A DNA stretch of 64,000 nt from assembly GCA_043821285.1 (NCBI GenBank), contig JBDRCZ010000019.1, positions 2,234-66,233 on the forward strand, written 5' to 3'. Both the position numbers and the translations under genes were made by a program. Below, in pieces: positions 6,423 through 58,930 of this stretch; within the stretch, counting starts at the first letter, position 1; each line of letters begins with the position of its first letter. The notes beneath the pieces are model-generated. The model ran no database searches and was not told the origin of the DNA. It saw only the letters and a program-made list of their open reading frames with translations. This stretch comes from Candidatus Omnitrophota bacterium (GTDB taxonomy: Bacteria; Omnitrophota; Gorgyraeia; B26-G9; JBDRCZ01).

Positions 6423-6708
6423 TTTTTGTCCTTTCAATGTTATAGGTTCTCTCAAATAATAAACCACAGAGAGCATAATGCTCACTTTTAAGGTAAACAA
6501 TGGCCTTTTGGCCGTTCATCAACATAAATAATATTTATTTTCCCGCCAAGACGCCAATTTTTACACGGATAAAAAACCGGCTTTTTAATAATCCATTTGT
6601 TTGACCTCATTCCACCACAAGGCATTGGCGGATCTTCGATTTTTATCAGTGTTTAATCCGTGTCAATCCGTGGCTTTGTCTTTTTATTTTATTTGTAAGA
6701 CTACCATT

Positions 6709-9120: not shown

Positions 9121-9314
9121 TGCCACCCGGCAAAGCCTGACCGCAGCGAATAGGCAATTTATTAGCTTCCGGTGCTTCGCACCATCGTCAATTCATCTCT
9201 ATGCCAAAAGCACAGAAATAAATTGGCATTTTCTTAAAAAATCACTTTCGCTTCCAACCACCACAAAGTGTTGGCGGATCTTCGATGTGCCGGGAAATGC
9301 TTTGAATTTCCCAC

Positions 9315-9354: not shown

Positions 9355-10203
9355 CAATGTAATTATCGTGCACCAGCAAAATTTTTTCAAAAAAGTTAGT
9401 TTCCCCAAAATGAACCGGTCAAACCGACAAAGCATATCAAAACTTTGCCCAAACATTTTCTCATTTTTAATAAGCGTCTTCCAAAAAAATGCCAAAAGCG
9501 CAAACAAAAAAAACCGCTCCTGTTCCATCCGGGAAAAACTGTTTTTTAGTTCCTCAAGATCAGCACCGCACAGGGGGTGTTCATCGCTGGTGCGGTCTTT
9601 TGGGGTTAAAAATCTATACAAATTGATAAACGGGTTCATACCTAATGGTTCGATAAACACCGCCTTGCCGTTCTTTTTTAAAACACGGCAAAGTTCATCT
9701 CTTATTTTCTTAATATCAAGGTGATGTACTATTGCCCTTCCAAACACCCCGTCAAATTCCGCATCATTAAACTCTAATTTTTCTGCATCCATCAAAATTG
9801 CCTCTGCCCGATCCATTATTTTTTCTTGTTCGATAAACCGCTTAATCGTCTTTACCGCTTCCTGTGATATATCAATTGCGACCACCCTTGCCCCAGATCT
9901 AATAAAGTAGTGCATAATCTCGGTGTTAGACCCGCATCCCAGATACAAAATTTTTTTATTTTGGACATTATCCATTTTCTCATAGGCCTTTTTTAACAAC
10001 AGTCTTCTCAATTTTTCGTCATAAAATTTTGCCTGCGCAGACCTTACTGCCTTTCCGCCAAAATAGCGGTCATGAAAGAGCCTTTCGCTTTTCTTTCTCT
10101 TCTCAACATTATTTCCGTTTTTCATTTTTATCCAATCATAATAAAAAGATTCCTTCGGAATCTTTTTATCCGTTTGAAAACCATAGGTTTTCAAACTTTC
10201 CAT
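9334..10203 (-). CDS. Class I SAM-dependent methyltransferase
   Basis: 289 aa. Motif I ILYLGCGSNTEIMHYFIRSGARVVAIDIS. Confidence 0.65.
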   Translation of the reverse strand: MESLKTYGFQTDKKIPKESFYYDWIKMKNGNNVEKRKKSERLFHDRYFGGKAVRSAQAKFYDEKLRRLLLKKAYEKMDNVQNKKILYLGCGSNTEIMHYFIRSGARVVAIDISQEAVKTIKRFIEQEKIMDRAEAILMDAEKLEFNDAEFDGVFGRAIVHHLDIKKIRDELCRVLKKNGKAVFIEPLGMNPFINLYRFLTPKDRTSDEHPLCGADLEELKNSFSRMEQERFFLFALLAFFWKTLIKNEKMFGQSFDMLCRFDRFILGKLTFLKKFCWCTIITLYKSSLS

Positions 10204-10214
10204 CCAAAGATAAA

Positions 10215-11546
10215 CTACCCTCTATCTTGCTGCCGGGAATAATCAAGTTTAAAAAAACACAATCTTTTTAAACTTACGGTCAGCGCAACTAATATAAAGG
10301 GTAAAAACTGATATGACCGTGTGAGAAATAAGGCAATAATCATAACCCCTACCAGGCTAGCAAATAATGACGCTGCCCAGGGGGAGAGATTTTTTAGCGC
10401 TTCATTCTTTTTCTGTAATCCCTCAATAAATAAAAGATCAGAGAATGTCTTTAAAAAAATCAAAACGTACAGGATAAATCCCACAACACCGGTCTCAGCA
10501 ATTATCAGAATAAACGAATTATGCGCAGTCAATTTTCTTGTAAGATTTGCCTCTGGTGAAATATACTCCAGGACATTGTCCTCGAACTGGGCAATTCCCA
10601 CTCCCCGGTACGGATGTTCTTTTGCCATGGCAATTCCTGCCTTCCAAAGCTCAATTCTCAATTGTGCTGACCGGTCTAACTGAGAAGTATCTGTTGCCCG
10701 CATCGTCATCATGCGTTCCCTGAATTCTGAACTGCAAAATAAAAGACCAAACAATAATAATAAAACTATAGGCCCGGTAATTATTTTTTTCCGGCTTTTT
10801 ATTACCAGCATCATTAAAACGGCCCCTAATCCCAAAAATCCAGATCTGGAATATGTCAAATATACTGCCCAGATATGTAATAAAAATGCACTAATAAAAA
10901 TTAACTTATAAACAATTTTCTGTGTGCTGGCAGCAAAATTCAAAATAAACGGCAAAGACAAAACGAATACCATGGCTAAATTATTAGGATCGCTTAAACT
11001 GCCATAATATAATATTCGATCTAGCCCATCTTCATATTCGACATTCCCGCCAGAAATATGATATTGAAATATACCATATATTGCCAGATATGTCGTCAAC
11101 GTAACCAGCATCAAAATATAACCGGTAAACTGTTTTTCTGTTTTTATCAGACTAATCACTAAAAAATACATTATAACTACCGGCAAAAAAAATACGGAAA
11201 AATTACGATATGACTCTATAAAAACCGCGCCGCTGAAAACCAAGGCGATCGCGAACAATATAAACAATAGATTTTGTCCTTCCCGCGGGGCCTTTATTTT
11301 TTGCCTAAGATCCGGGTGTAAAACTGAAGATAAAATGAGAAAGAACGCAAAAAATTTAGCTAAAGGAAATGTCTCCAGCCCCGGGAACATCTCTAATTCT
11401 TGCGGTTGTACAATCAAAAGGAACAAGAAAAAAAGTAAACCATAAAATGGACGTCTTAAAGTTAAAATTATAATAATAATTGCAACAAAAAATGCAAACA
11501 TTCCCCGGAGAGAAAACACAAATGCTAAATCCATATCTATCCTCAA
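10215..11546 (-). CDS. Polytopic membrane protein of the O-antigen polymerase/ligase (Wzy_C) superfamily
   Basis: 443 aa with about 10-12 hydrophobic helices. A large loop carries the YSRSGFLGLG...H motif region typical of Wzy/WaaL-type proteins. Confidence 0.5.
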   Translation of the reverse strand: MRIDMDLAFVFSLRGMFAFFVAIIIIILTLRRPFYGLLFFLFLLIVQPQELEMFPGLETFPLAKFFAFFLILSSVLHPDLRQKIKAPREGQNLLFILFAIALVFSGAVFIESYRNFSVFFLPVVIMYFLVISLIKTEKQFTGYILMLVTLTTYLAIYGIFQYHISGGNVEYEDGLDRILYYGSLSDPNNLAMVFVLSLPFILNFAASTQKIVYKLIFISAFLLHIWAVYLTYSRSGFLGLGAVLMMLVIKSRKKIITGPIVLLLLFGLLFCSSEFRERMMTMRATDTSQLDRSAQLRIELWKAGIAMAKEHPYRGVGIAQFEDNVLEYISPEANLTRKLTAHNSFILIIAETGVVGFILYVLIFLKTFSDLLFIEGLQKKNEALKNLSPWAASLFASLVGVMIIALFLTRSYQFLPFILVALTVSLKRLCFFKLDYSRQQDRG

Positions 11547-22397: not shown

Positions 22398-23567
22398 TCA
22401 CCCGGATATGTATTTTCTTTTGTATCTTTTTGTATAGTCAACTATTTTTCGCTTTATTGCCTGGGGTATCGTCGGATTTCTTTGTGCGCCTAGGATACAC
22501 TGCTGGCAAATTTTTACTTGTTTATTTTTTATGGCCCTAAGAAAATCACGATGCCTCTTATTTTCCCATATTTTGCTAATCGACATCTCGCAGATATTTC
22601 CTAGATGATAATTTTGAAAAAATAAGCATGGCAAAACATTGCCGCTGGGGTCAATCGTAATATGATACCTTGAAATATAGCAGCGCTCATGCTGACAAGA
22701 GCCTTTAACCAAATCTTGTACACGAAAACAGTCAATATTATCTGTATCCAAATATATTTTCTCTCTATATTTCCTTTCTAATTCATCTATTTTTGTTTTT
22801 AAATAACGCGCCTGTTTTTCATTGAGAAGTAAACTATCATTTTGTCTTTGATAATACGGATTTGCTACAATATCTGCCACTTTTGACTGCTGGATAAGTT
22901 CCGGAGAAAATTCACCGTAATATTCAAAATGTAACTGATCCGCTCCCAAATCAATGGCATACGGTAAAAGCTCGTCAAACTTATCAATATTCAAGTTAGA
23001 CACGGTGCAATAAATACTAATTGAAGGATACGCACGCTTCCCTTTTATCCTAACCATCTCTTTTAATCCCTGCGTAGCTCTTTCAAAAATACCTTTTACT
23101 CCCCGGATATTATCATGTCTTTCTCCTACTGCATCAATGGAAACTCCGATATTATCCGCACCGGTTTCGACCAATTCTTTAGCTATTTCTTTAGTCAATA
23201 AATTACCATTGCTTGTAATATCGCAACTAATGCCTTTGCACTTGATATATTTTGCCAGGGGAAATAGTATTTCTTTTTTTAATAAGACATCTCCGCCAAA
23301 AAGATAAATCAGACCAATTTTAAGTTCCGCAAGCATGTCCACCGCTTTCTTCCATTCGGTTAAATCCATTTCTCGATAATCATACGGCCTCTTCCACATC
23401 TGACACATCTTACAGCGGGAGGAACACCGATAAGTTAAAAAAAATAATGCCTCACGAGGCTTAATCTGATAATAAGCAGCCTCTCTCTTGCCTAACCAGA
23501 TGATAAAATCAAAAAAATCTCTGATTACATTAGTCGTAAGTTTGAACCCGTTAAATATCTTTTTCAT
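22398..23567 (-). CDS. Radical SAM enzyme with SPASM-type C-terminal Cys cluster
   Basis: CSSRCKMCQMW (CxxxCxxC) and a C-terminal CQQC. The ORF track extends to 23804, but the upstream 79 codons run through a repeat element. The start is taken at MKKIFNGF. Confidence 0.75.
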   Translation of the reverse strand: MKKIFNGFKLTTNVIRDFFDFIIWLGKREAAYYQIKPREALFFLTYRCSSRCKMCQMWKRPYDYREMDLTEWKKAVDMLAELKIGLIYLFGGDVLLKKEILFPLAKYIKCKGISCDITSNGNLLTKEIAKELVETGADNIGVSIDAVGERHDNIRGVKGIFERATQGLKEMVRIKGKRAYPSISIYCTVSNLNIDKFDELLPYAIDLGADQLHFEYYGEFSPELIQQSKVADIVANPYYQRQNDSLLLNEKQARYLKTKIDELERKYREKIYLDTDNIDCFRVQDLVKGSCQHERCYISRYHITIDPSGNVLPCLFFQNYHLGNICEMSISKIWENKRHRDFLRAIKNKQVKICQQCILGAQRNPTIPQAIKRKIVDYTKRYKRKYISG

Positions 23568-23625
23568 AATTATGTTAAACGCCCCGCCACAGACTCTTTG
23601 GCAGGGGAGCATAACCCCTACATTT

Positions 23626-23777
23626 AAACCTGAGTATTCCCTGTAGCAAGCTATAGGGTAAAAAGTTTTTGTTTTTTGCGAAATTGTCGAAGATCCGCCG
23701 TGGCGGGGCGAAGACAATTTCGCTTGCAGTTGTCGGAGGCAACTGACCGGAAAATGATTGCATTTTTCGTGTATGAA
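23626..23777. repeat. Copy 1 of a ~150-bp structured intergenic repeat. It is the inverted partner of 58778-58930.
   Basis: It is about 90% identical to the reverse complement of 58778-58930. It contains hairpins GAAAATGattgCATTTTC, CAGTTGtcggaggCAACTG and a long one, GCGAAATTGTCGAAGATCCGCC-gtgg-CGGGGCGAAGACAATTTCGC. Confidence 0.7.
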
Positions 23778-23813
23778 CCCCCCTTGATAGCAGAGTGGCT
23801 GCATTTAACATTC

Positions 23814-24587
23814 TCAATAAATTCCAATTTTATTTAAACTTTTTTTAAACGGCAAAAACACATTTTCTCTCAATCTTCTCTTTAACCCATTTTTGTACCG
23901 GCTTAAAATATTTGACGGTTCTTCTTCCTCTGAAATCGGATAGGAATAATTACAAACAATAGCCTTAAACTTATCTTTTAGGCAACCGATAAAATCCGCA
24001 AATTCTTCTCTGGTTTCAGAAACGTAATCCGGTGAATATGCTATGTAAATATATTCCGGGATAGTGCGGCAATTATATGACAAAAAATCTTTTATACTTT
24101 TTTGCCGCTGTTGTTTTGTTTTATTCTTTAAAGCAAAAAAATCCCAGTCAATATCCAGATGTTCACCTTCTTCAAGTTCTATGGCCGGTGAATACAATAT
24201 TTCTGTGTATTTCAACGGATAGTTTTTTGCCGGCGAGAAAAACGTTTTTATCCGATAAGGAACCGCCGTCAAATCCGAGGTATATTTTACATGCGTCATA
24301 TCCTTATCCCGTCCGCCATAATGGTCATGTAACCACTTTATTTCTTTTATTATTCCATCCCGCACGGCAAGACTGATAAAATTACCGCAGTCGACTGTTT
24401 TTAATTCCGGCAAAATATACACAACTTCTCTGCTTTTGTTAACAAGCAGATGATGCATGTCACAGTGTGTATCCAAATGCAATATCTTAATGTTTTGAAA
24501 ACCTAATTTGCGCCAGAGGAAAAGTAATTCATGGTGATGCTCAACAATATAAATTACGGGTTTAATCTTCATCTTAGCAGTCATCAC
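23814..24587 (-). CDS. Hypothetical protein with His-rich motifs (VEHHHELL, HLDTHCDMHH); possibly a metal-dependent hydrolase
   Basis: 257-aa ORF. I recognise no confident family. Confidence 0.35.
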   Translation of the reverse strand: MMTAKMKIKPVIYIVEHHHELLFLWRKLGFQNIKILHLDTHCDMHHLLVNKSREVVYILPELKTVDCGNFISLAVRDGIIKEIKWLHDHYGGRDKDMTHVKYTSDLTAVPYRIKTFFSPAKNYPLKYTEILYSPAIELEEGEHLDIDWDFFALKNKTKQQRQKSIKDFLSYNCRTIPEYIYIAYSPDYVSETREEFADFIGCLKDKFKAIVCNYSYPISEEEEPSNILSRYKNGLKRRLRENVFLPFKKSLNKIGIY

Positions 24588-24617: not shown

Positions 24618-26033
24618 TCAACTCTCCAATCTCCTAAAATCATCATTAACCCTTTCAATATCATCCTCTTCGAGGCAACTTCCGCTCTGTACTTCCACGA
24701 TTTTCAATATTTTGTCTTTTGGATTTTCCAGCCGGTGAAGTTGCTTAGCGGAGACAAAAATGCTTTCATTACTATGTATGAAACTTACCTTTTTACCACA
24801 GGTTACCCTGGCTACCCCTTCAACAACAACCCAGTGTTCACTGCGAAATTTATGCCGCTGCAGGCTCAGACGTTTATGCGGCATTACCTCGATAAGCTTA
24901 ACCTTAAAACCCCGGCCGTGACTAATTACCAAATAATTCCCCCACGGCCGCTTTACTTTCAAGTGAGAAAAATGTTCAGATCCGCCGCTTTTTTTTACCA
25001 GTTCAACCATCTTTTTTACGTCTTCAGTTTTATCTTTATTACAGATTAAAATCGCATCATTTGTATCAACAATAATCAAATCCCGCAAGGCAATGGTTGA
25101 AATCAGCTTATTATCTCCAAAAACCGTAACATTCTTACTGCCTAAATCTATACAATTTGCCTGAATTAGATTACCCTGGCTATTTTTCTGATATAGTTCA
25201 TCAATGGCCAGCCAGGAACCTAAATCACTCCAGCCAATATTACCGGCGGTCACGATAACAGAAGAATTTGATTTTTCCAGTACTCCGTAATCTATAGATA
25301 TCGGAGAAAGTTTTGTCCACTTATGCTCAAATATATTTTTTTGGTCCAGTGTTTCTATACACCCATACAAGTCTGGCAAAAATTTTCTGATTTCTGCTAA
25401 AATTATCCCGGCCTTCCAGATAAACATGCCACTATTCCAGAAATATCTACCGGTCTTTAAAAACTTTCGCGCAAGCTGCGGATCCGGTTTTTCTTTAAAC
25501 TCACCTACCTGATAAGTGTTTTTTAACCCGGCGATCTTATCTCCTTTTTTAATATAACCATATCCAGTAGAAGGTGACTTTGGCTTTATACCCAAAGTCA
25601 CTAAAAAATTATTTCCTGCTGCCCGCAGTGCACTTTTTACAAGTTTTGTGAATTTACCGGTCATTTTCACGGCATGATCTGAAGGCAATACTATGATTAT
25701 TGCCTCGGGATTATCCCTGGCAATTATCTTTGCCGAAAGAGCAATCGCGCCGGCAGTATTTTTTCCTGAAGGCTCAAATATGATATTATCCTTGGAAATC
25801 CCAAAAACAGAAATCTGTTCTTCTAACTCAAATTTGTGCAGCCTATTTGCTACAATATATATCTTTGATAAATTAACTATAGATAAAATCCGTTTTATCG
25901 TCTGCTGGAGTAATGACTGATTATTGTACAGCTTTAAAAATTGTTTCGGCTCAAGTTCCCGGCTAAGCGGCCAAAACCTGCTGCCTACCCCCCCGGCTAA
26001 TATTACCGCGTATATGTGTTTTTTATTAATCAT
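24618..26033 (-). CDS. manC: Mannose-1-phosphate guanylyltransferase / mannose-6-phosphate isomerase (bifunctional type II PMI-GMP)
   Basis: 471 aa. The N-terminus AVILAGGVGSRFWPLSRELEPKQFL is a nucleotidyl-transferase motif. The C-terminus has a cupin domain with RPWGNYLVI...HKRLSLQRHKFRSEHWVVVEGVA. Confidence 0.85.
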   Translation of the reverse strand: MINKKHIYAVILAGGVGSRFWPLSRELEPKQFLKLYNNQSLLQQTIKRILSIVNLSKIYIVANRLHKFELEEQISVFGISKDNIIFEPSGKNTAGAIALSAKIIARDNPEAIIIVLPSDHAVKMTGKFTKLVKSALRAAGNNFLVTLGIKPKSPSTGYGYIKKGDKIAGLKNTYQVGEFKEKPDPQLARKFLKTGRYFWNSGMFIWKAGIILAEIRKFLPDLYGCIETLDQKNIFEHKWTKLSPISIDYGVLEKSNSSVIVTAGNIGWSDLGSWLAIDELYQKNSQGNLIQANCIDLGSKNVTVFGDNKLISTIALRDLIIVDTNDAILICNKDKTEDVKKMVELVKKSGGSEHFSHLKVKRPWGNYLVISHGRGFKVKLIEVMPHKRLSLQRHKFRSEHWVVVEGVARVTCGKKVSFIHSNESIFVSAKQLHRLENPKDKILKIVEVQSGSCLEEDDIERVNDDFRRLES

Positions 26034-26494
26034 ATCCAGCTCTCATGAATCTTCCCGGTTGTGCCAAAACTATCCGCATGTTTTTCTAATCAACCACAGA
26101 CTTTCACAGATTATTATTTTTTTAGCTACGGATTTACACGGATGTAGCACGGATTTTTTAAATAAAAAATTTTCTTCTGCTTGATCATCTCTCCTCCACA
26201 ATGCATTGGCGGATCTTTGATGTAGCAAAAAAACTACAGGGCATTATGCCAAGCTGATAAGGCAATGCAACACCGGAATTTTTTTATCTATTCGTAAAAA
26301 TTGGTGTCCTTCGATAGAATTTATCCTGAGAACAATCGAAGGACTCAGGACTTTTCTTAACACTGAGCGAAGTCGAAGTGTGTTATTCGTGGTGTAAATG
26401 TTTTTACCCTCGTATGTTATCCGTGTTCAATCAGTGTCAATCCGTGGCTTTATTGTTTTAAGGCCAAGTATCTATACCATCCGTGCGATTTTTT

Positions 26495-27790: not shown

Positions 27791-27965
27791 TATTTCATCC
27801 TTTCATTAATAAAAAAATTCCTTCCCGCCGATTATTTCAGTAAACAAGACCATAGGATATTGCACCGGCTCTATGATGTCCCTGATCACCAGAATTTTTT
27901 TATCCATTTGAAAACCTGCGGTTTTCAGACTTTAAATGACCCGCCAAAAAACATGGCGGGGAATT
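27791..27965 (-). promoter_or_regulatory. Copy C of the promoter/leader module, including the palindrome TTGAAAACCtgcgGGTTTTCAG and ending in AAGGAATTTTTTTATTAATG at the dehydrogenase start
   Basis: Direct sequence comparison with 8987-9120 and 33001-33165. Confidence 0.5.
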
Positions 27966-28018
27966 TAACAATGTCCATTCCCCCCGGTAAACACATAGGG
28001 AACAGGCACGTTTAAAGC

Positions 28019-28825: not shown

Positions 28826-29061
28826 AATTTATGGCGCTGCCAAGCGACATAAATTATCTGTCATAATTTAATCCGCCAGCTTGTTAGGCGAATATTAAAA
28901 TGTTCCTTAAATGACCCGCAGTTCTGTCAAATACTTAACCACAGAGGTCACAGAGAGACTTGAGAACAAAACACTTATACCTGCCTGCCGGCAGGCAGGT
29001 GTGGTTTCTTTCATTTTATTTTTGACGTTACCTGGCCCGCCATGGTTTTAGCGGGGGAACT

Positions 29062-30342
29062 TTAACTCATCAACGAAGTAACAATTCCTATTATAATCAA
29101 GCAAACAATAATAATTACGGCAACAATAATTGCTTTTTTCTGCTTTATTGCTTCTTTATTTACCTCTTCTATGGTGCTAATTTTCGAAATTGCTCCTAAT
29201 ATTGGTAATTCGAGTACGGTCTTTGCATCCTCTACCGATTTAAAAGAGTGGTCTGTATATTCCCGGCCAAAAACACATCCTACCCCTAAAAATCCACCCA
29301 AGACAAAACCCAAAAAAGAAATTATTAATTTATTAGGCTTTTTCGGCCTTAGCGGTATCCGGGCCGGATCAATTATCTTAAAACGTGTACCTTCACGGGA
29401 AGATTCTAAGCGCTGAGTAATCTTCGCCGTTTCCAGCCGCTCAAGCAGCATATCATATATCTTCTCATTAACCGAAGTATCCCGTGCTTCTGATGTCCCG
29501 AGTTTGTCAAGCATCATCAACGCATATAAATTTTCAGTGGCATTAGGGTCATCCCTGCTTAATGCGCTGATCACCCCTTCTTTTTCATAACGTTGTTTTA
29601 GCTTTTTAATTTCTTCGTGGATATTTCCATACAACGGACTGGCTTTAGAGATATTAGGTTCAGTAATAATTTCACTATTTAATTCTTCTTCTAAGATTTT
29701 GACCTTTTTACGTAAATCCGCTACCTGAGGATGTTCTTCAGTGACATCAGATAATAAATTATCCAGCTGTTCCTTATAACCGGCAAGTTCCGCTTCTTTT
29801 ATTTTGTGTCGATATACATTCAACTGGTCCTCAATGAACTTTATCGCGACATCCGCTTCTTTACCCTGAGATTTTAAGTGTTCTTCGATGAAAATATCTG
29901 TAATATTTCTTACGATCTGCTGCACGACCTGAGGGATTTTCCCCTGATAACTGATGAGAATAATTTCTGGTCCCCGCATTCTTACGGAAATATTTTTTTT
30001 TAAATCCAGAATAAGCCCTTCATATTCTAGAGGATTTTTTATCCCTTTATCCAGCTTTAGACGCTCGACCAGTTTAACCAACCGGTTCCAGCCTAAAATT
30101 TCTTCCTTGAGAGTCTGGTATCGTTGGATCACACTTGTTGAAACGGCAATCCCGCTGATCAAAGGATTTATAACCTTTTCCTCCTCAACCAAAATAACAG
30201 CATTTGATTCATATATTTTGGGCATAAAAAAACTTGCCGCGCTAAATAGCACAAATGTCACATACCATGGCACAAATAAAAACCACTTCTGCCTGAACAG
30301 AACACGGACATAATCTAAAATCGTCAAAGTATGTGTATCCAC
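29062..30342 (-). CDS. Polysaccharide co-polymerase / chain-length determinant (Wzz/GumC/EpsA-type PCP). GTG start.
   Basis: 426 aa. An N-terminal TM (FLFVPWYVTFVLFSAASFF), a long coiled-coil periplasmic region and a C-terminal TM with a G-rich stretch. Together with the adjacent BY-kinase this forms a split PCP2b arrangement. AAGGAGG sits 5 nt before the GTG. Confidence 0.7.
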   Translation of the reverse strand: MDTHTLTILDYVRVLFRQKWFLFVPWYVTFVLFSAASFFMPKIYESNAVILVEEEKVINPLISGIAVSTSVIQRYQTLKEEILGWNRLVKLVERLKLDKGIKNPLEYEGLILDLKKNISVRMRGPEIILISYQGKIPQVVQQIVRNITDIFIEEHLKSQGKEADVAIKFIEDQLNVYRHKIKEAELAGYKEQLDNLLSDVTEEHPQVADLRKKVKILEEELNSEIITEPNISKASPLYGNIHEEIKKLKQRYEKEGVISALSRDDPNATENLYALMMLDKLGTSEARDTSVNEKIYDMLLERLETAKITQRLESSREGTRFKIIDPARIPLRPKKPNKLIISFLGFVLGGFLGVGCVFGREYTDHSFKSVEDAKTVLELPILGAISKISTIEEVNKEAIKQKKAIIVAVIIIVCLIIIGIVTSLMS

Positions 30343-30423: not shown

Positions 30424-31158
30424 TTAACGCTTACCTATTGACTCAATTACTGCTGCTTTATAAAATGGATTTACAATCTGGTCCAAAACCACTCCTAATT
30501 TTCCAAACATGGTAAATGGCACATAAACAATATCACCGGATTCAAGTTGTATATTTTGCGATAAATCTCCTTCATATAGCAAGGCTAATAAATTAATCTT
30601 TTTCACTTTTACCTTTTTTTCGTTGGGTGCCGGGGTAATAATACGGGTTTTGCGCATTGAGGCCAAATGTGTCGTTAATCCCGCAGCAAGCACTGCTTCT
30701 CTCACGGTCAAAATATTCCCTCTCATTGGATACTCACCGGGTCTGGCCACCGCGCCAATAACATAAATCTTTTTACTGTTAAATTCCGCAATGGAAAGGA
30801 TAACTTCAGGTTGTTTAACAAACTTTGTCAATTCTTCCAGGAGTTTTTCCTTAATTTGTTTTGTTGTTAAATCTCCAACTTTTATATCTCCGACAAATAC
30901 ATATTGAATAGTCCCATCATGTCTAACTCTAAATCTGCCGCTTAGTTCTGAATGCCGCTGTACTTGTATATCGAGAACATCTCCTATGCCAAGAATATAA
31001 TCTTCTAATATATATACTTCTGATGCATTATATTCATTATCAACTCTAATGCCAATTTCATCTTCTTGCTCTTTATCATCTAAAGCAAAAACATTCGTAC
31101 AGGAACAAAACGCAGATATAATTATTATCACCAACATTGTTATTTTTCTAAAAAACAT
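30424..31158 (-). CDS. Polysaccharide export protein (Wza/OPX family; Poly_export + SLBB)
   Basis: 244 aa. An N-terminal signal peptide with a cysteine (lipobox-like FCSC), and YILGIGDVLDIQV / GDIKVGDLT polysaccharide-export and SLBB motifs. RBS AAGGAGGG. Confidence 0.75.
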   Translation of the reverse strand: MFFRKITMLVIIIISAFCSCTNVFALDDKEQEDEIGIRVDNEYNASEVYILEDYILGIGDVLDIQVQRHSELSGRFRVRHDGTIQYVFVGDIKVGDLTTKQIKEKLLEELTKFVKQPEVILSIAEFNSKKIYVIGAVARPGEYPMRGNILTVREAVLAAGLTTHLASMRKTRIITPAPNEKKVKVKKINLLALLYEGDLSQNIQLESGDIVYVPFTMFGKLGVVLDQIVNPFYKAAVIESIGKR

Positions 31159-31354
31159 TTTGCCCTCCTTAGTTTAAGAACGGTTCTGTCAAAAATATCT
31201 GCACATTTTTTAAAGCACTCACAGAGCATAAGCACCCATAGGACACAAGCAGCCACTGATTACTCAGATTAAATTGATTTTATTCTTTTAAATCCTGCTC
31301 TAAATCTGTGGTTGCATTTAATTCTTTCATAGGATTTTTGACACTACCTAAGAA

Positions 31355-31546
31355 CTAGTACAATGTTTCATGAAACGACCGGATAGATTCAAGCTCTTCC
31401 TGTGTATAGACACGCCAACCGCGATAATCTCTTTTTGGCCTGCTTATTTTACCAGATTTCTCCCATCGCATAATCGTTTTGGTCGTTACCCCAAGGGTCC
31501 GGGCAATATCAGTAATTGTCATTCTGCCATTATCTACCACTTTCAA
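31355..31546 (-). CDS. Small MerR/excisionase(AlpA)-type helix-turn-helix DNA-binding protein, probably TTG-initiated
   Basis: 63 aa. MTITDIARTLGVTTKTIMRWEKSGKISRPKRDYRGWRVYTQEELESI matches the MerR-type HTH. AGGAGG precedes the TTG. Confidence 0.55.
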   Translation of the reverse strand: MKVVDNGRMTITDIARTLGVTTKTIMRWEKSGKISRPKRDYRGWRVYTQEELESIRSFHETLY

Positions 31547-31589
31547 ACCTCCTCGTTAAATGATTGGTTCTGTCAAAAGTATCCGCATA

Positions 31590-31700
31590 TTTTGCAAAGC
31601 AACCGCAGGTTTTCAATATATAAAAAAATTTCTCATACTGCATAACCTCATCACCTTGGAATAATACCATGCAGTCTTGCAGCAGGAATAATAAAGGTGA
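31590..31700 (+). promoter_or_regulatory. Copy F of the promoter module oriented on the plus strand (TTGGAATAATACC extended -10 near 31665). It points into an ORF-less AT-rich region.
   Basis: CATACTGCATAACCTCATCACCTTGGAATAATACC matches the minus-strand reading of copy A (GGTACTGCATAACCTCATCAGTTTGGCATAATACC). Confidence 0.4.
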
Positions 31701-32085
31701 AAGAGGATTTTTATTCGGTACAGACTTTTCATGAAATACCCATACTGTCTTATACATCTATGCACTAAAAAATAAGCAGCAATATAGCGCGTATTTATGC
31801 TGCCGGTTAAAGCATATTAGATATATTAGCATATACTGTGCCAAAATATCTAAGACAGTCCAGATAAATAAAAAAATCAGTTTTCTATATTTATAACTGA
31901 TTAATCATCAATAAGTTATAATTTATTATTTTATTTTATTTTCGAGCAATTTTTTTAAAGAATATTTTTGTAAAATTCAAAAATGTCCATATAAAACAAC
32001 ATTATTTGTAAAAAAATAAATATTTTATATCCTAACTCATTTTATTTTAAATAGTTCTAAATAATGTCTAAAAATATAATCACCA

Positions 32086-32122
32086 TAAAAATACCCTGCA
32101 GCACGCTACAGGGTTATTTTTA
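32086..32122. terminator. Bidirectional intrinsic terminator AAAAATA-CCCTGCAGCACGCTACAGGG-TTATTTTTA
   Basis: A GC-rich 8-bp stem flanked by an A-tract and a T-tract. It can terminate rnpB (minus) and any plus-strand transcript from 31.7 kb. Confidence 0.65.
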
Positions 32123-32228
32123 TGCTGGAAAACGCAAGTATTTTCCAATTATCCGCCTTACTGAATGCAAACACATTTTTTTATCGCGAAGCGGATAAAT
32201 GATTATTTTTGCGTAGCAAAAATAAAAA

Positions 32229-32593
32229 GAGCAAACCGATAAGCCGAGTTCTGTATTCCAGCAAATTGCTGAAACGATGGTCATCTATCTATCACTAGTG
32301 TTACCACTAGTTTTAAGCAACCATACCCGCCCTGCTGCCTCATAAAAGGCAATGAACGAGCCGTTCAATACAGGGACCTATTTGGTCTTGCTCTACGTAG
32401 AGATTGCCACGTTTCACCCCCCATTATCCGCTATAATTATAGCGAAGTAACCAAATGGAGACTCGTCTCTGTTGCTCTAATCCTCTTGCCACGATTTAAT
32501 GGCAAGGACGGGCGTTACCCGCTACGCTGCTCTATAGAGCTCGGACTTTCCTCCCCGTGGTAAAATACCACGGAGCGACCATCTGGTCTGCTC
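32229..32593 (-). ncRNA. rnpB: RNase P RNA (bacterial type A)
   Basis: The minus strand reads 5'-GAGCAGACCAGAUGGUCGCUCCGUGGUAUUUUACCACGGGGAGGAAAGUCCGAGCUC... (the universally conserved P4 GGAAAGUCCG). It ends ...ACAGAACUCGGCUUAUCGGUUUGCUC-3' (the conserved P4 3' strand ACAGAAnCCGGCUUA). P1 pairing between the ends and a P3 hairpin CCGUGGuauuuuaCCACGG are present. Confidence 0.85.
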
Positions 32594-33000
32594 TTTTTAG
32601 TTGCTTTATCTATTGCTTGTGCAGCTAATTTATCCGCAAGACTATTTTTTTCACGTTTAACATGTTTTAATTCCAGCCGTTCAAACCGGATAAGCAGCTT
32701 TTTTACTCTATTATAAAGCGGTCTTATATTTTTACTTTTTATTTTATACTCGCCGCTAACTTGTTTAACTATCAATTCACTGTCTGAATAAACAATGATA
32801 TGCGCGTATCTTAAATTAGCTGCTTCTTCTAACGCACAGATCAGCGCGGTATATTCTGCAACATTATTTGTTGCAGTGCCAATATAACGGGATATTTCCT
32901 TATAAAAATCATTTTGATCTTTAAAAACCACCCCGATACCTGCGGGGCCAGGATTTCCCTGCGATGCCCCATCAACATTAATTACCAGATTACTCCGCAA
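32515..33000 (-). CDS. rnhA: Ribonuclease HI (RNase H type 1). TTG start. Its C-terminal ~26 codons overlap the 5' end of rnpB.
   Basis: 161 aa. VDGASQGNPGPAGIG, NNVAEYTALICALE, YSDSELIV and REKNSLADKLA match the RNase H1 D-E-D-D catalytic motifs. Confidence 0.75.
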   Translation of the reverse strand: MRSNLVINVDGASQGNPGPAGIGVVFKDQNDFYKEISRYIGTATNNVAEYTALICALEEAANLRYAHIIVYSDSELIVKQVSGEYKIKSKNIRPLYNRVKKLLIRFERLELKHVKREKNSLADKLAAQAIDKATKKSRPDGRSVVFYHGEESPSSIEQRSG

Positions 33001-33165
33001 AATCTTTGTTCCTTAATAAAAAAATTCCTTATCATCGATTATCCCGGCATGCAAGACCTCAGGGTATTGCGCCGGCTGTATAATCTTTTGTATCACCGGA
33101 ATTTTTTATACATTTAAAAACCATAGGTTTTTAAGCTTTCCCGCAATAATGTCACCCTGCAGCAA
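33001..33165 (-). promoter_or_regulatory. Copy D of the promoter/leader module before rnhA (palindrome AAAAACCataGGTTTTT, ...AAGGAATTTTTTTATTAAGGAAC)
   Basis: Sequence comparison with copies A and C. Confidence 0.45.
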
Positions 33166-33186
33166 AACTACCGGGAATAGGCAAGT

Positions 33187-33906
33187 TTAACCTTCTTCCT
33201 TCACATACAAGATCCGTGCACACCGTTCACACAAGATCAGATTGTTATTCATTTTAATTTCATTTATGACCTGAGGCGGTGTAATCATAAAACAACCACA
33301 GCACATACTATCTTTTACCTCTACAATCCCAAGACTGTCATTCTTCCCGTTGATAATTCGCTCGTATCTTGCTAATATTTCTTTATCAACTTTTGTACTT
33401 ATTTGTGCTCTTTGCAAATTAAGCTGATTTATTTTATCATCAAGCTCCCGCATCGCGATTTCAATGGCAGCAATTTTTTGTTTTGTTAAATCTTCATCTT
33501 CCTTTAATTCATTTTTTTCCTTATCTATTTCTTTTTTTGTTGAATCAATTTTCTCAAGCAGCTTAATAACTTCTTCTTCCAATAACGAGTTATCTGCCTT
33601 CGTCTTATTAATTTCAAGCTGTAATGCTGAATATTCTTTATTTGTCTTTACCTGATAAAGTTGTAACTGCTGTTTTTTTACTGATTCTTCTTTAGTTTGA
33701 AGCTCAAGCTCTTTCGCTTTGCGTTCAAGTTGTGTTTTTTTATAGTTCTCTTCTTTTGTTCTAAAGGAGGTAAGTCTGTGTTCAATACTGTTTTTTAACT
33801 CAGTGATTAGATCTGGTTTTTCGTTTTTTTCTGCAACTAAGGCAGCAGCTTCAGAATCAATCTCTTGCATTTCCATCAACAACTTAAGCTGCTCATTTAT
33901 ATTCAT
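33187..33906 (-). CDS. Coiled-coil protein with a C-terminal C4 zinc ribbon (COG1579-type)
   Basis: 239 aa. A long heptad-rich region is followed by CCGCFMITPPQ...CERCARILY. Confidence 0.55.
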   Translation of the reverse strand: MNINEQLKLLMEMQEIDSEAAALVAEKNEKPDLITELKNSIEHRLTSFRTKEENYKKTQLERKAKELELQTKEESVKKQQLQLYQVKTNKEYSALQLEINKTKADNSLLEEEVIKLLEKIDSTKKEIDKEKNELKEDEDLTKQKIAAIEIAMRELDDKINQLNLQRAQISTKVDKEILARYERIINGKNDSLGIVEVKDSMCCGCFMITPPQVINEIKMNNNLILCERCARILYVKEEG

Positions 33907-33979: not shown

Positions 33980-34056
33980 TGGTGGGCGCAATAGGACTCG
34001 AACCTATGACCTCTCGGATGTGAACCGAACGCTCTAACCAACTGAGCTATGCGCCC
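33980..34056 (-). tRNA. tRNA-Val (anticodon CAC), CCA encoded
   Basis: The reverse complement GGGCGCATAGCTCAGTTGGTTAGAGCGTTCGGTTCACATCCGAGAGGTCATAGGTTCGAGTCCTATTGCGCCCACCA folds as a cloverleaf. Anticodon loop is TTCACAT. Confidence 0.85.
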
Positions 34057-34129: not shown

Positions 34130-34205
34130 TGGTGGGCCCACAAGGACTCGAACCTTGGACCAAGAGATTATGAGTCTCCTGCTCTGCCAACTGAGCTATG
34201 GGCCC
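34130..34205 (-). tRNA. tRNA with anticodon CAT: elongator tRNA-Met or lysidine-modified tRNA-Ile2 (not initiator type). CCA encoded.
   Basis: The reverse complement GGGCCCATAGCTCAGTTGGCAGAGCAGGAGACTCATAATCTCTTGGTCCAAGGTTCGAGTCCTTGTGGGCCCACCA. It has a G1-C72 pair and no three-GC anticodon stem, so it is not an initiator. Confidence 0.8.
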
Positions 34206-42474: not shown

Positions 42475-42602
42475 TTCATAATTTTGCTTTTCAGATAATT
42501 AATCAAAAATCCGCCAGTATATTATGGTGGACTGGCGCCCTCCATAAAAATTGGCGGACAGTGATTAATTCACCCGCCCTGTATTTTGGCGGGTCATTAA
42601 AG

Positions 42603-42776
42603 TTAATATTTTCTGCTTTTTGAGCTTTTTCTTTTTCTTCGTTTTATTTCGCTTGGTTTTTCGTAATGTTTGCGTGCTTTAAGTTCTTTTAAAATTCCTG
42701 ACTTTTCTATCTTTTTTTTAAATCGGCGCAGGGCTTTTTCCAGTGGTTCTCCTGCTTCAACTTTTATCCTATCCAT
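42603..42776 (-). CDS. rpsU: 30S ribosomal protein S21 (not in the ORF track)
   Basis: The minus-strand translation is MDRIKVEAGEPLEKALRRFKKKIEKSGILKELKARKHYEKPSEIKRRKRKSSKSRKY. This is the S21 pattern (cf. E. coli [29 protein letters not shown]...FYEKPT..RKR). RBS AGGGAG. Confidence 0.85.
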   Translation of the reverse strand: MDRIKVEAGEPLEKALRRFKKKIEKSGILKELKARKHYEKPSEIKRRKRKSSKSRKY

Positions 42777-43104
42777 TTTGTTGTCACTCCCTCTGTTTAT
42801 AGATTAAATGTGTAGACAATACCCGTAGCACAAACTACGTATATTCTATGACAATGTCCGTCTGCGAATTAAATCCCTGTCCGCCAAATCCGCCGCTTAT
42901 ACCTTGGCAGATTTTCAGCTTTCTGAGGACAAAACTATCTGTTCAGCGGATGTTTAGTTTATTTTAATGACCCGCCATGGTTTTTGGCGGGGAATTTACC
43001 CACCGTCGTATTAGCGGCGGGAGATTATGTTTATGCTTTTACTATGGTGTATATTAATTAACTGCAAGAAAATTACGAAAAATAATTCTTATAAGAACCA
43101 CCTT

Positions 43105-43133
43105 GATTTTAGCAAGATCAAACAGTTTTGTCA
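43105..43133 (-). promoter_or_regulatory. Near-consensus sigma70 promoter TTGACA-17-TAAAAT on the minus strand, about 320 nt upstream of rpsU
   Basis: The minus strand reads TTGACAaaactgtttgatcttgcTAAAAT. The long leader contains CCCGCC/GGCGGG hairpins. Confidence 0.45.
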
Positions 43134-43317
43134 AGATAATCTTCTAATCGGATAATTACACTTGAAAAATACGGATTATCCCGCCGACTATTATTTGTAA
43201 ACATTTGCCGCTCATCAGCAGCTATTACTACTGAAAAAAGTTTTAATTTCCAATCACCGTCCCCCGTCGCCACAGAAAAAAACAGAGCATTTTCCCTATG
43301 CGTGGGATCTCTATGAA

Positions 43318-43971
43318 CTACGTCTGTGGAGATTCCACTTCAAAAGAAATTACGAGATTAAAAGTAAGTTCTTCACGGTCAATTTTTTCGGGGATTGCCG
43401 GGAATGGTGTCGCCGCTTCAATGCTTCTTATTGCCGCCTTTTGTAAAAACTGATCTGAAGCTGAATTCTCTTCGATTATCTGTACACAATGTAACTGGCC
43501 TTTTTTCGTAATCGTAAACGTAAGAAAGATATCTCCGCGCTTGAATTGTGCCGGATAGATAACATTGCGGCGGATTTTTTCACGAATATTGGAATAATAA
43601 TCCAAATAAATTTTAGATTCTTTCAGACTTTGCGCTTGCCTTTTGTAAAATTCGTTTGTCTCATCTCTGATATTAACCTTTTTTGTTCCGGGGACCGAGC
43701 GTTTGTAAACTGAGACGGTATGCTTTTTTGTGGTGATCGCGGTAGATTTTTCTTTTTTTGGTAAATATATCGGCTCGGACGGCAACGCTGTCTTTTCTGC
43801 TGGCAATGATAGCTTATCCTGAGAAGAAATAAGATATGTTACTTCAATATCCGCTATTTTAGCTTTTGGAAAAAAATATTTGCTGCAGAACGCTCTGGGT
43901 AAAAACAAGGTTGCATGTAAACACATCGAAATTAGCAGTGCCGCTTGAAATGTCTTATTTTGTTCAATCAT
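43318..43971 (-). CDS. TonB-family energy transducer (C-terminal TonB domain protein)
   Basis: 217 aa. An N-terminal TM (ALLISMCLHATLFL), a Pro/Lys-rich linker, and a C-terminal YPAQFKRGDIFLTFTITKKGQLHCVQII...F motif typical of TonB_C. Confidence 0.6.
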   Translation of the reverse strand: MIEQNKTFQAALLISMCLHATLFLPRAFCSKYFFPKAKIADIEVTYLISSQDKLSLPAEKTALPSEPIYLPKKEKSTAITTKKHTVSVYKRSVPGTKKVNIRDETNEFYKRQAQSLKESKIYLDYYSNIREKIRRNVIYPAQFKRGDIFLTFTITKKGQLHCVQIIEENSASDQFLQKAAIRSIEAATPFPAIPEKIDREELTFNLVISFEVESPQT

Positions 43972-44019
43972 TTATTATTCACAATTTTCAATTACGTTCT
44001 ATTTTTTAGAACAGATGGT

Positions 44020-44090
44020 AAATATCCGGAAAATGCGGTGCATTTTCCGTGCATGAATATCCTCAAGAGCAAGTTCTTGAGGATATTCAT
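44020..44090 (-). terminator. Tandem hairpins just after the HD-GYP gene stop: a perfect 38-nt palindrome ATGAATATCCTCAAGAGC|GCTCTTGAGGATATTCAT (44053-44090), plus CGGAAAATGCggtGCATTTTCCG (44025-44048)
   Basis: Seen directly in the sequence. The second hairpin resembles hairpin 1 of the ~150-bp repeat element. Confidence 0.55.
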
Positions 44091-57748: not shown

Positions 57749-58675
57749 TTACTCGACAATTTCCGCCTTATCGATAATTGCCTGAGGTATCAATAAATTT
57801 ATTTTCTCCGCAACCTTTAAATTTAAAACTAAATTAACCGTTTGTGGAGACTGGATGCCAATATCAGCCGGTGTCTTTTCCCCGCTTAAAATTTTATTAG
57901 CAATATCTGCGGCCTGTCTGCCTAAATCTTGACAATCAACATCCAAACTGAATAATCCCCCTTTTTTTACAAAGGTTTTAGCCGGACATAGTAACGGTAT
58001 CTCATTACTTAAACTAAAAAACAGCAATCCTTGAAATACCGTGCTATTTACAACAACCGGGTCGGGAATTACCCAAAAGGCATCGATCTTGTCTTGCAAA
58101 TATTTAATCGTTTTAGAAATCTCTGATTTCGACTCCATCTTTACATCAACAATAGTTAGATCTAAAGCCAGCGCTTCTTTTTTAGCTTCCTTAATTATCT
58201 CGGTAGTTCTTTGCGGATCGTATATCACCCCTACTCTTTTAACCTGCGGGGCGATGTTTTTTAAATGTATCAGTTGATATTTAGGTGCTACGTCTAACCT
58301 CACCCCACAGATATTGTCGCCAACTAAACCATACCGGACAGGATTCACGACCATGCTAAAAACAATCGGGATATTTGAGATATTCAGTTTAGCCAGCTGG
58401 GCGGCTTTGCTGCCAAGGGCAAAAATTAGGCGGGGAGACTGAAACCGGATTCGCTCGATGATATTTTTTCCTTTATTTAAATCTCCGTGCAGCCAATATT
58501 CGGTCGTCCGCCCCTCATAAGCATCATTAAATCCTTTAAGCACCAACGGATAAATACTATAATCCTCACCAACAATAACCGCAACATCCGCGGCATCGGC
58601 TTTAATACACCATACCCCCATTAATACCCATACTAAAAATAAACCGACAATTACTGCCCGCTTTTCTTTTCTCAT
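57749..58675 (-). CDS. ABC_sub_bind (COG2984) family periplasmic binding protein, paralog 3
   Basis: Start taken at MRKEKRAVIVGLFLVWVLMG (the ORF track N-terminal extension to 58801 reads through a repeat element). IFALGSKAAQLAKLNISNIPIVFSMVVNP. Confidence 0.65.
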   Translation of the reverse strand: MRKEKRAVIVGLFLVWVLMGVWCIKADAADVAVIVGEDYSIYPLVLKGFNDAYEGRTTEYWLHGDLNKGKNIIERIRFQSPRLIFALGSKAAQLAKLNISNIPIVFSMVVNPVRYGLVGDNICGVRLDVAPKYQLIHLKNIAPQVKRVGVIYDPQRTTEIIKEAKKEALALDLTIVDVKMESKSEISKTIKYLQDKIDAFWVIPDPVVVNSTVFQGLLFFSLSNEIPLLCPAKTFVKKGGLFSLDVDCQDLGRQAADIANKILSGEKTPADIGIQSPQTVNLVLNLKVAEKINLLIPQAIIDKAEIVE

Positions 58676-58777
58676 CTTCACTCCTTTGCACCATTCCGAT
58701 ATTCCATCATCGTCGAAAAACCTTTGCTTCTCATCAAAACGATAATGAATCTCCCGCTCAGCAAGAGAAGGGGTATC

Positions 58778-58930
58778 TTCATACATGGAAAATGCAATCA
58801 TTTTCCGGTCATCCGCCTAGGCGGATGCAAGCGAAATTGTCTTCGCTTCCGCCACGGCGGATCTTCGACAATTTCGCAAAAAACAAAAACCTTTTACCCT
58901 CTAGCTTGCTACCGGGAATACTCAAGTTTA
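58778..58930. repeat. Copy 2 (inverted) of the ~150-bp structured repeat
   Basis: The reverse complement of 23626-23777 at about 90% identity. Its middle hairpin is replaced by a different self-complementary sequence, CATCCGCCtaGGCGGATG. Confidence 0.7.

Follow-up and report, generated by a model that had tools for sequence, protein, structure and literature searches.

Genomic setting of the repeat

The window, that is, the whole stretch of 64,000 nucleotides (64 kb) analyzed here, is a part of a 68,982-bp contig (JBDRCZ010000019.1) of the metagenome-assembled genome (MAG) of 'Candidatus Omnitrophota bacterium', and it contains two inverted copies of an intergenic repeat, referred to below as copy A (23625-23777, plus strand) and copy B (58778-58930, minus strand; all positions are those within the window). 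The G+C content of the window is 37% and 88% of it is coding; all real-looking open reading frames (ORFs) of at least 110 codons are on the minus strand. Copy A lies antisense inside a surface-polysaccharide cluster, in the order UPF0489 gene, copy A, radical SAM/SPASM gene and two GNAT genes; copy B, in the sense orientation, follows the gene of a TonB-dependent receptor and precedes that of an ABC substrate-binding protein. These Pfam assignments agree with the initial annotation of the window, which had placed both copies between genes. The surface-polysaccharide (O-antigen-type) cluster around copy A occupies positions 4-27 kb and encodes GT4 glycosyltransferases, a Wzy-like ligase, a methyltransferase, GNATs, the radical SAM/SPASM protein, and ManC.

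It had also been noticed that both copies falsely extend the N-termini of neighboring ORFs, and this is indeed so. The radical-SAM ORF (22398-23804) comprises 468 codons, as compared to 389 amino acids (aa) of the deposited protein. The ORF of the binding protein (57749-58801, minus strand) has 350 codons, and its start, located inside copy B, is the one used in the NCBI record MFH1776303.1 (350 aa). Five homologues lack the first 44 or so residues of the latter protein, which are followed by a signal-peptide-like segment (MRKEKRAVIVGLFLV...). The homologues and the position of this segment indicate that the true start of the ABC substrate-binding protein is at 58678 (309 aa), and the public record would thus contain a false N-terminal extension, the expected length being about 306-309 aa.

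Sequence and fold of the two copies

The repeat is a non-coding, hairpin-rich sequence of about 150-180 bases. Within the window, blastn aligned copies A and B with 89% identity over 154 nt (E = 2e-40), and the MAFFT alignment runs end to end over 154 columns with a mean column identity of 94%, in full accordance with the alignment at roughly 90% identity reported initially. Two pairs of inverted-repeat arms, 23625-23706/58849-58930 (82 nt, 95% identity) and 23737-23777/58778-58818 (41 nt, 88%), are separated by a divergent middle hairpin. The similarity runs about 25-30 nt past the 3' end assigned to the repeat previously, at approximately 60% identity; in copy A this extension ends about 6 nt from the stop codon of the UPF0489 gene, and in copy B it forms a hairpin that is terminator-like according to the consensus scan.

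Both strands of both copies fold far more stably than their dinucleotide shuffles (z from -3.6 to -5.6; forward strand, from -3.6 to -4.3). Of the three hairpins per copy described earlier, all are present, but the number of helices is five, the additional ones being a 5' hairpin and a weakly conserved 3' hairpin (Table 1). Hairpin 3 reads GGAAAATG-ATTG-CATTTT(T/C)C across the two copies. The central long hairpin contains a core unit, TGTCGAAGATCCGCC-NN-GGCGG, in which GAAGAT-CCGCC-GT-GGCGG is enclosed in an outer stem of 11 bp. The alignment of A and B served to build a covariance model, R1, of 154 positions and 39 pairs, which is used in the searches described below.

Table 1. Copies A and B of the repeat, their hairpins, and related elements of the window (bit scores are those of model R1)
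Feature	Position	Strand	Remarks
Copy A, conserved core	23625..23777	+	190.7 bits; antisense to all neighboring genes; between UPF0489 gene stop (23814) and radical-SAM/SPASM gene start (23567)
Copy B, conserved core	58778..58930	-	192.6 bits; co-directional with genes; between TonB-dependent receptor stop (58968) and ABC substrate-binding gene start (58678)
Hairpin 1, copy A	23639..23658	+	CCCTGTAG-CAAG-CTATAGGG; belongs to the 5' module "block 1"
Hairpin 1, copy B	58897-58916	-	2x2 internal mismatch
Long hairpin, copy A	23678..23723	+	11-bp outer stem GCGAAATTGTC/GACAATTTCGC; internal loop GAAGAT/GGCGAA; apical CCGC-CGUG-GCGG (4-5-bp apical stem)
Widespread unit within the long hairpin, copy A	23685-23706	+	TGTCGAAGATCCGCCGTGGCGG
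Long hairpin, copy B	58831-58877	-	
Middle hairpin, copy A	23727..23745	+	CAGTTGTC-GGA-GGCAACTG
Middle hairpin, copy B	58810-58827	-	CATCCGCC-TA-GGCGGATG
Hairpin 3, copy A	23749..23768	+	GGAAAATG-ATTG-CATTTTTC, then tail GTGTATGAA; module common to other window elements
Hairpin 3, copy B	58787-58806	-	
3' extension, copy A	23778..23808	+	Weakly conserved; short hairpin GCAG-AGTGG-CTGC at 23790-23802
3' extension, copy B	58750..58777	-	Weakly conserved; hairpin TCTCTTGC-TGA-GCGGGAGA (58750-58768)
Partial relative	10131..10253	-	30.1 bits (match 10251->10131); without the long hairpin
Partial relative	33105..33192	-	27.1 bits (match 33189->33105); without the long hairpin
Partial relative, 3' half	44024..44090	+	22.4 bits (match 43920-44057)
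Compact relative	32080..32155	+	18.2 bits; hairpins 1 and 3 only 13 nt apart
Free-standing core unit	6612..6639	-	TCGAAGATCCGCC-AATGCCTTGT-GGTGG
Free-standing core unit	9258-9285	-	
Free-standing core unit	26192-26221	-	One mismatch

Insertion into compact operon junctions

The relatives available for comparison of these loci are distant (48-61% protein identity); the radical-SAM homologues are 57-61% identical, and the gene order is kept. The spacer between the genes of the PF12640 (UPF0489) and radical-SAM proteins is 246 nt long in the window versus 16, 59, 54, and 42 nt in the relatives' loci L259, L260, L264, and L265, respectively, and the spacer between the genes of the TonB receptor and the ABC_sub_bind protein is 289 nt versus 70 nt in L261. 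The search of the relatives' loci L259-L265 with R1 gave no match, the element being absent from the syntenic loci in five relatives, and neither did the search of 31 low-GC and 18 viral loci. Since both junctions are short and empty in the syntenic relatives, the A/B sequence has been inserted twice: A and B are lineage-specific insertions, in opposite orientations, into two unrelated and otherwise compact operon junctions, i.e., small non-coding insertions present or absent at orthologous sites.

One of the two identities initially proposed for the repeat was that of a miniature inverted-repeat transposable element (MITE). Double insertion at junctions empty in relatives speaks for it; however, the element is not a classical MITE. 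Exact complementarity between the ends of A or B extends over no more than 5-6 nt, whether the 3' extension is included or not. A direct repeat CATTTAA surrounds copy A (23621-23627 and 23802-23808, with a shifted boundary), but copy B is flanked by none at the equivalent positions, so that the two copies have no target-site duplication (TSD) in common. A MITE dependent on a DDE transposase, to which the size, the non-coding nature, the intergenic insertion, and the 7-bp repeat around copy A would correspond, is highly improbable and already largely refuted by these features of the ends and flanks, the more so as a 7-mer match in such an AT-rich search space is, by our estimate, to be expected in roughly 5-20% of trials. 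A blastn search with the 181-nt element found no match among plasmids and phages.

Modular build of the element

In the window, R1 retrieved the two full copies (193 and 191 bits) and several weaker partial matches, comparison of which reveals that the element is composed of modules. The 5' module, block 1, consists of TAAACTTGAnTATTCCC and hairpin 1, and it also heads several other intergenic elements (10216-10253, 33168-33192). In the element 10131..10253, block 1 is 92% identical to that of copy B over 36 nt and is followed by the palindrome TTTGAAAACC-TAT-GGTTTTCAAA, which replaces hairpin 3; in the element 33105..33192, it is followed by a homologue of hairpin 3 with the tail ATGTATAAA. 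Further copies of hairpin 3 and its tail are located at 33105-33135, 44024-44057, and 32127-32155. With the tail ...CATTTTCC-ATGTATGAA this hairpin is nearly unchanged at 44027-44057, and in at least three other elements it has a different but paired stem, TGAAAACC/GGTTTTCA, and the tail ATGGATAAA. In copies A and B, hairpins 1 and 3 are separated by an insert of about 90 nt, at the position of which the element 27791-28012 has a different GC-rich hairpin (CCCGCC...GGCGGG). On the whole, the 5' block and the 3' hairpin occur separately in at least six other intergenic elements of the window.

The element 44024..44090, which reads CCGGAAAATG-CGGT-GCATTTTCC-GTGCATGAA followed by a perfect 16-bp palindrome, adjoins the stop codon of the gene 44091-45629. 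This palindrome (ATGAATATCCTCAAGA-GCAAGT-TCTTGAGGATATTCAT, 44058-44090, plus strand), located directly beyond the stop codon and next to the hairpin-3 copy, has an arm resembling CTTGAGTATTC of block 1. The compact element 32080..32155 adjoins the 3' end of the RNase P RNA gene of the opposite strand (class A, 32224-32594, minus strand, 198.5 bits), and two tRNA genes are located at 33983-34056 and 34133-34205, both on the minus strand.

Thus, the conserved terminal modules enclose variable internal ones, as in BOX elements, and the modules combine into mosaics with other motifs and occur in both orientations (A on the plus strand, B on the minus strand, and modules on both), as in repetitive extragenic palindromes (REPs) and bacterial interspersed mosaic elements (BIMEs). 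Ten elements of the window bear the modules: six of them have the same direction as the genes, and the remaining four are on the plus strand. The former six, being co-directional with genes and directly upstream of them, make it conceivable that copy B is a cis-acting leader or attenuator, i.e., a 5' untranslated regulator of the ABC substrate-binding gene related to the other block-1 elements directly upstream of start codons, copy A being its decaying inverted duplicate. Copy B has block 1 and hairpin 3 in common with those elements, which carry a conserved 13-bp long-range helix by the ribosome-binding site; however, this helix is absent from copy B itself. Moreover, copy A is preserved as well as B in spite of being antisense, with no gene following it on its strand; four module copies belong to the plus strand, which is devoid of genes; and in L261 the syntenic junction functions with 70 nt in the absence of such a leader. 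We therefore regard the leader function as quite improbable.

Just as improbable is a one-off segmental duplication or gene conversion between the two loci, involving neither mobility nor a repeat family. The presence of only two full copies in the window and the lack of terminal inverted repeats (TIRs) and TSDs would be in agreement with such an event, and so would the patchy identity along the element (95%, replaced, 88%, about 60%), as after a partial conversion. Nevertheless, both sites are insertions in comparison with the relatives, which means that an unrelated junction must have been invaded de novo at least once, and the modules are present at no fewer than eight further sites in the 64 kb.

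Replacement of the middle hairpin

The middle hairpin, as noted at the outset, differs in sequence yet remains self-complementary in both copies: three adjacent pairs are changed on both sides (G-C/U-A, U-A/C-G, U-A/C-G). In total, 34 of the 39 pairs are unchanged or paired in both copies; two changes are single-sided, both leading to G.U on the forward strand, and two pairs are open in hairpin 1 of copy B. The initial annotation considered this structure-preserving replacement to be a product of selection. The replacement as such is a fact, but its number of double changes is matched by 71 of 500 shuffles, and with two sequences only this control is uninformative. The middle hairpin diverges at 9 of 19 positions (about 47%) in an element that is otherwise 90-95% identical, and in copy B it reads ATCCGCC-TA-GGCGGAT, which is similar to the core unit's apical hairpin. 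Given this high local divergence and the likeness to the core unit, stepwise compensatory evolution of an RNA is no more likely an explanation than a sub-family or module swap. Sub-families with "alternative complementary stem residues" have been described for REPs (PMC3733652). As to hairpin 3, double changes distinguish two sub-families of the module at three of its eight pairs, which amounts to one or two events.

The core unit in the window and in other bacteria

The core unit itself is a short imperfect palindrome capable of forming a stem-loop, as REPs are. The 13-mer TCGAAGATCCGCC occurs in five copies in the window, one of them with a mismatch, and all five are intergenic. Hairpins of the CCGCC..GGCGG type number nine, versus 0.14 expected from shuffles, with seven of the nine in intergenic regions. 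The free-standing TCGAAGATCCGCC-loop-GG(C/T)GG units are flanked by low-complexity short repeats, such as CACGGATTGACACGGATT in the window and GAATGACGAATGACGAA, GGATGAAGGATGAAGG, and AATCGTTAATCGTT in metagenomic loci. A small ORF following the free-standing units was considered and rejected upon inspection, as it is not conserved between the copies.

Scanning of metagenomic contigs with the exact pattern TGTCGAAGATCCGCCNNGGCGG, which specifies 20 bases, gave at least 120 matches, while chance alone (4^-20 per position) would provide a few per terabase; in 2.9 million viral contigs this pattern had no matches. (Matches of viral contigs to the hairpin-3 and block-1 patterns, 6 and 12 in number, are due to chance, none of them having scored with R1.) Among the matches listed, the G+C content of the contigs carrying the unit ranges from 37 to 74%, and the unit is three-fold enriched within 120 nt of contig ends. 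At least two clustered units are present in 23 of the 120 metagenomic loci listed, with a median spacing of 122 nt and with some tandem arrays; in some soil metagenome contigs the period of such arrays is about 73 nt, and GTAG is present ahead of the outer stem.

The pattern applied to genome contigs, TCGAAGATCCGCCN{3,5}GGCGG, does not match A and B themselves, as their loop spacing is N2. The unit proved to be common in MAGs of the Planctomycetes-Verrucomicrobia-Chlamydiae (PVC) group, along with many chance matches in coding regions of high-GC genomes. The genuine intergenic instances are concentrated in Planctomycetaceae, Phycisphaerae, Sedimentisphaerales, Kiritimatiellae, and Lentisphaeria, and others were found in Armatimonadota, Acidobacteriota, Desulfobacterales, and Calditrichia. 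None of the 240 loci listed from the two scans contains a full-length copy of A/B, no conservation beyond the unit itself was found across the loci, and 20 loci carrying the unit had no match in Rfam.

With respect to the flanking ORFs, the unit (M) is oriented as >M> in 27, <M< in 22, >M< in 18, and <M> in 18 of about 85 intergenic instances among the matches listed; for the low-GC loci, where the ORF calls are safer, the respective numbers are 10, 9, 9, and 4. Such a random orientation argues for a palindromic repeat of the REP kind, acting at the DNA level, and against a co-transcribed strand-specific RNA signal. The outer stems of the unit display no strand asymmetry (15 G.U versus 11 A.C). 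A universal outer stem around the unit was rejected, since it is present in only about 13% of the instances versus 2% of controls. Rejected, too, was a K-turn: GGCGAAGA resembles the bulged strand of Kt-7, but the opposite strand lacks the required G.A partners both in A/B and in the general family. Literature searches for the motif string of the unit retrieved unrelated primers only, and those on palindromic repeats in Omnitrophota, nothing relevant.

The core unit is therefore a part of a very widespread family of dispersed GC-rich palindromes, which has no Rfam entry and which we did not place in any described REP family, the families having been compared by description rather than by consensus. 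Considering the 20 identical bases at 37-74% G+C in the PVC group, Acidobacteriota, Armatimonadota, Desulfobacterota, and Omnitrophota, one could suggest that UGUCGAAGAUCCGCC-loop-GGCGG is a cross-phylum functional motif recognized by a conserved protein, and A and B are a mobile structured RNA carrying it. The unit might, for instance, represent a REP super-family not described so far, with a tag of 9-10 nt and an HUH enzyme of its own, or be recognized by an RNA-binding factor. We consider this suggestion rather improbable.

Search for features of a small RNA

The second identity initially proposed, that of a small RNA, received no positive support. At the gathering score, Rfam 15 produced no match to the element in the whole window, and in the region of copy A (23500-23900) only chance-level matches appeared up to E = 10. 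Consensus scans for promoters and terminators inside or directly upstream of either copy returned nothing above the shuffle level, the promoter rules of Omnitrophota being not established; the exception is the terminator-like hairpin after copy B, to which nothing corresponds after copy A. Upon inspection of block 1, both a sigma-70 promoter (no -10 element 16-18 nt from TTGAGT) and a sigma-54 promoter (no GG-N10-GC) were dismissed.

A pair of paralogous small-RNA genes, each producing from the forward strand of the element and from its own promoter a transcript of about 150-180 nt with 4-5 hairpins, could account for the highly stable forward-strand fold, for the three double changes that keep the middle helix, for the two single changes and one restored pair that give G.U on the forward strand only, and for the pairing of hairpin 3 kept through three double changes across module copies; the opposite orientation of copy A to its neighbors would be no obstacle for an independent gene, and the hairpin after copy B could terminate it. 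Yet the promoter and Rfam results are contrary to this explanation, R1 detected the element neither at the syntenic loci of five relatives nor at 49 further loci, the modules are also found apart from one another, no orientation of the core unit is preferred, and the covariation is not significant with two sequences. Such a gene pair is, in our opinion, unlikely.

Interpretation

Taken together, the two insertions and the modular build make it rather probable that A and B are insertions of one non-autonomous, non-coding, mosaic intergenic element with REP/BIME-like units and a BOX-like modular organization. By analogy, it looks like an element of an already known kind, represented by REP/BIME in enterobacteria, BOX in pneumococci, and Neisseria intergenic mosaic elements (NIME) and Correia elements in Neisseria.

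The element is assembled from hairpin modules: the 5' block comprises a tail and hairpin 1, the 3' block comprises hairpin 3, its tail, and the weak hairpin 4, and the insert of about 90 nt between them brings a T-run, the long hairpin around TGTCGAAGATCCGCC-NN-GGCGG, and a second small hairpin of the CCGCC type. It presumably spreads at the DNA level. This could be accomplished via single-stranded hairpin intermediates with the aid of a trans-acting enzyme encoded elsewhere in the genome, the obvious candidate for which is an HUH transposase similar to RAYT (REP-associated tyrosine transposase); alternatively, template switching or recombination between modules may be responsible. The effect on the host would be incidental: in either orientation, three to five stable hairpins would be placed between a stop codon and the next ribosome-binding site, and hairpins in a polycistronic mRNA can alter its stability or read-through.

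Several observations do not fit this explanation well. Only two full-length copies are present in the 64 kb, and the notion of a repeat family rests on the copies of modules; the ends have neither TIRs nor TSDs; no transposase or RAYT was found among the 20 ORFs of the window scanned against Pfam, and among the proteins encoded within 4 kb of the unit in the 240 listed loci, no family is recurrent. The gene calls used for the orientation test are crude ORF heuristics. The three single-sided or pairing-restoring differences of copy A all lead to G.U on the forward strand (n = 3), and this strand of copy A folds 15 kcal/mol better than its reverse. Such a pattern, though resting on three transitions only, fits that expected of strand-specific selection on an RNA or on a single DNA strand. 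Finally, the tetranucleotide tags of the described REP super-families are absent from A and B, as discussed below.

As for the practical consequences, repeats of this kind break metagenome assemblies and confuse gene callers. The two inverted 150-bp copies located 35 kb apart are a substrate for inversion, and the strong hairpins put into two operons, one for surface polysaccharide and the other for TonB/ABC uptake, may change their expression. Of greater interest as a lead is the 20-base hairpin unit common to many other phyla.

Other intergenic repeats of the window

Along with the element, the window contains a second, larger intergenic family, members of which are located directly upstream of start codons (33195->33000, 28012->27791, 9165->8987, and 10255->~10100, all on the minus strand), with partial members at 26330->26034 (minus strand) and 31540-31760 (plus strand). 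The downstream genes encode an RNase H-like protein, a 431-aa protein, a GT4 glycosyltransferase, a methyltransferase, and ManC. The order of parts in this family is block 1, GGGAAAG, the palindrome TTTGAAAACC-nnn-GGTTTTCAAA, TGGATAAAAAATTCCGG, about 70 nt with the GGCATAATACCC motif, and AAGGAATTTTTTTAT; TGGATAAAAAATTCCGG and AAGGAATTTTTTTAT pair as a 13-bp long-range helix beside the ribosome-binding site. The family has no match in Rfam. It could be a cis-regulatory leader or a MITE of about 95 bp with TIRs, nested there.

Palindromes of a further GC-rich family, TTAAATGACCCGCC...GGCGGGGAATTTAA, are also intergenic (27932-27968, 42565-42601, 42958-43007, 29033-29062, as well as 42511-42530), and the presence of three or four of them in one spacer (42475-43317) looks like a BIME-like cluster. 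One more repeat, D4, of about 60 nt, is read on the minus strand at 31164-31224, 31548-31608, and 26039-26099; it holds TTGACA and AAGGAGG-like motifs directly upstream of the genes 30424-31158 and 24618-26033 and is probably a duplicated promoter/ribosome-binding region. The region 31160-32220 (about 1 kb) has no ORF of at least 110 codons and contains several repeat modules. The genome of this representative of the little-studied, small-celled Omnitrophota thus bears a dense layer of mosaic intergenic repeats.

Comparison with known repetitive elements

REP and BIME sequences are known in Enterobacteria and Pseudomonas, and their families in PVC phyla, as well as dimers, mosaics, and alternative complementary stems, have been described (PMC3733652). 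Like these, the modules considered here are GC-rich imperfect palindromes, intergenic, clustered, present in both orientations, and combined with short motifs into mosaics; they, too, have alternative complementary stem residues and frequent G.T pairs and are found inside operons downstream of stop codons. The described REP super-families have a conserved tetranucleotide, GTAG or CGTC, at one end of the palindrome (PMC3733652). In contrast, A and B lack this tag, their long stem being preceded by TTTTTGTTTTTT, and their conserved single-stranded tag, (TGTC)GAAGAT, is longer; in some metagenomic sub-families GTAG does precede the outer stem, e.g., cagTAGGGGCACGGCA-unit-GCCGTGCCC. Another difference is that the sequence of the unit is common across phyla, whereas REP families are usually specific to a species or a genus.

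Correia elements and NIME of Neisseria resemble A and B in being intergenic mosaics of short repeat blocks near genes of surface structures, insertions of which put hairpins in transcripts. However, Correia elements have 26-bp TIRs and a TA duplication, NIME are bounded by dRS3 repeats, and A and B have neither.

The BOX elements of Streptococcus pneumoniae, boxA-boxB(n)-boxC, are modular sequences of 100-200 nt, which occur in either orientation, are predicted to form a stable RNA fold, and can affect neighboring genes. The resemblance of A and B to them consists in conserved terminal modules with internal hairpin modules variable in number and kind, and in their intergenic, non-coding nature. 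A sequence relationship to BOX is not known, and the ends of BOX are mutually complementary in a TIR-like manner, unlike those of A and B. To our knowledge, sequence homology to boxA, boxB, or boxC is not to be expected across phyla.

The last group to be compared comprises palindrome-associated transposable elements (PATE), other non-autonomous derivatives of IS200-IS605, and REPINs (REP doublets forming hairpins). From PATE, A and B differ in that the left hairpin 1 (CCCTGTAG..) is unrelated to the right hairpins 3 and 4 (GGAAAATG.. and GCAG..), and in that no conserved target tetranucleotide precedes the left end, the flanks being ...ACATT and ...GTGGA. At the same time, A and B share with this group the lack of TIRs and TSDs and the presence of subterminal hairpins near both ends, which makes them compatible with single-strand mobilization by an HUH transposase.

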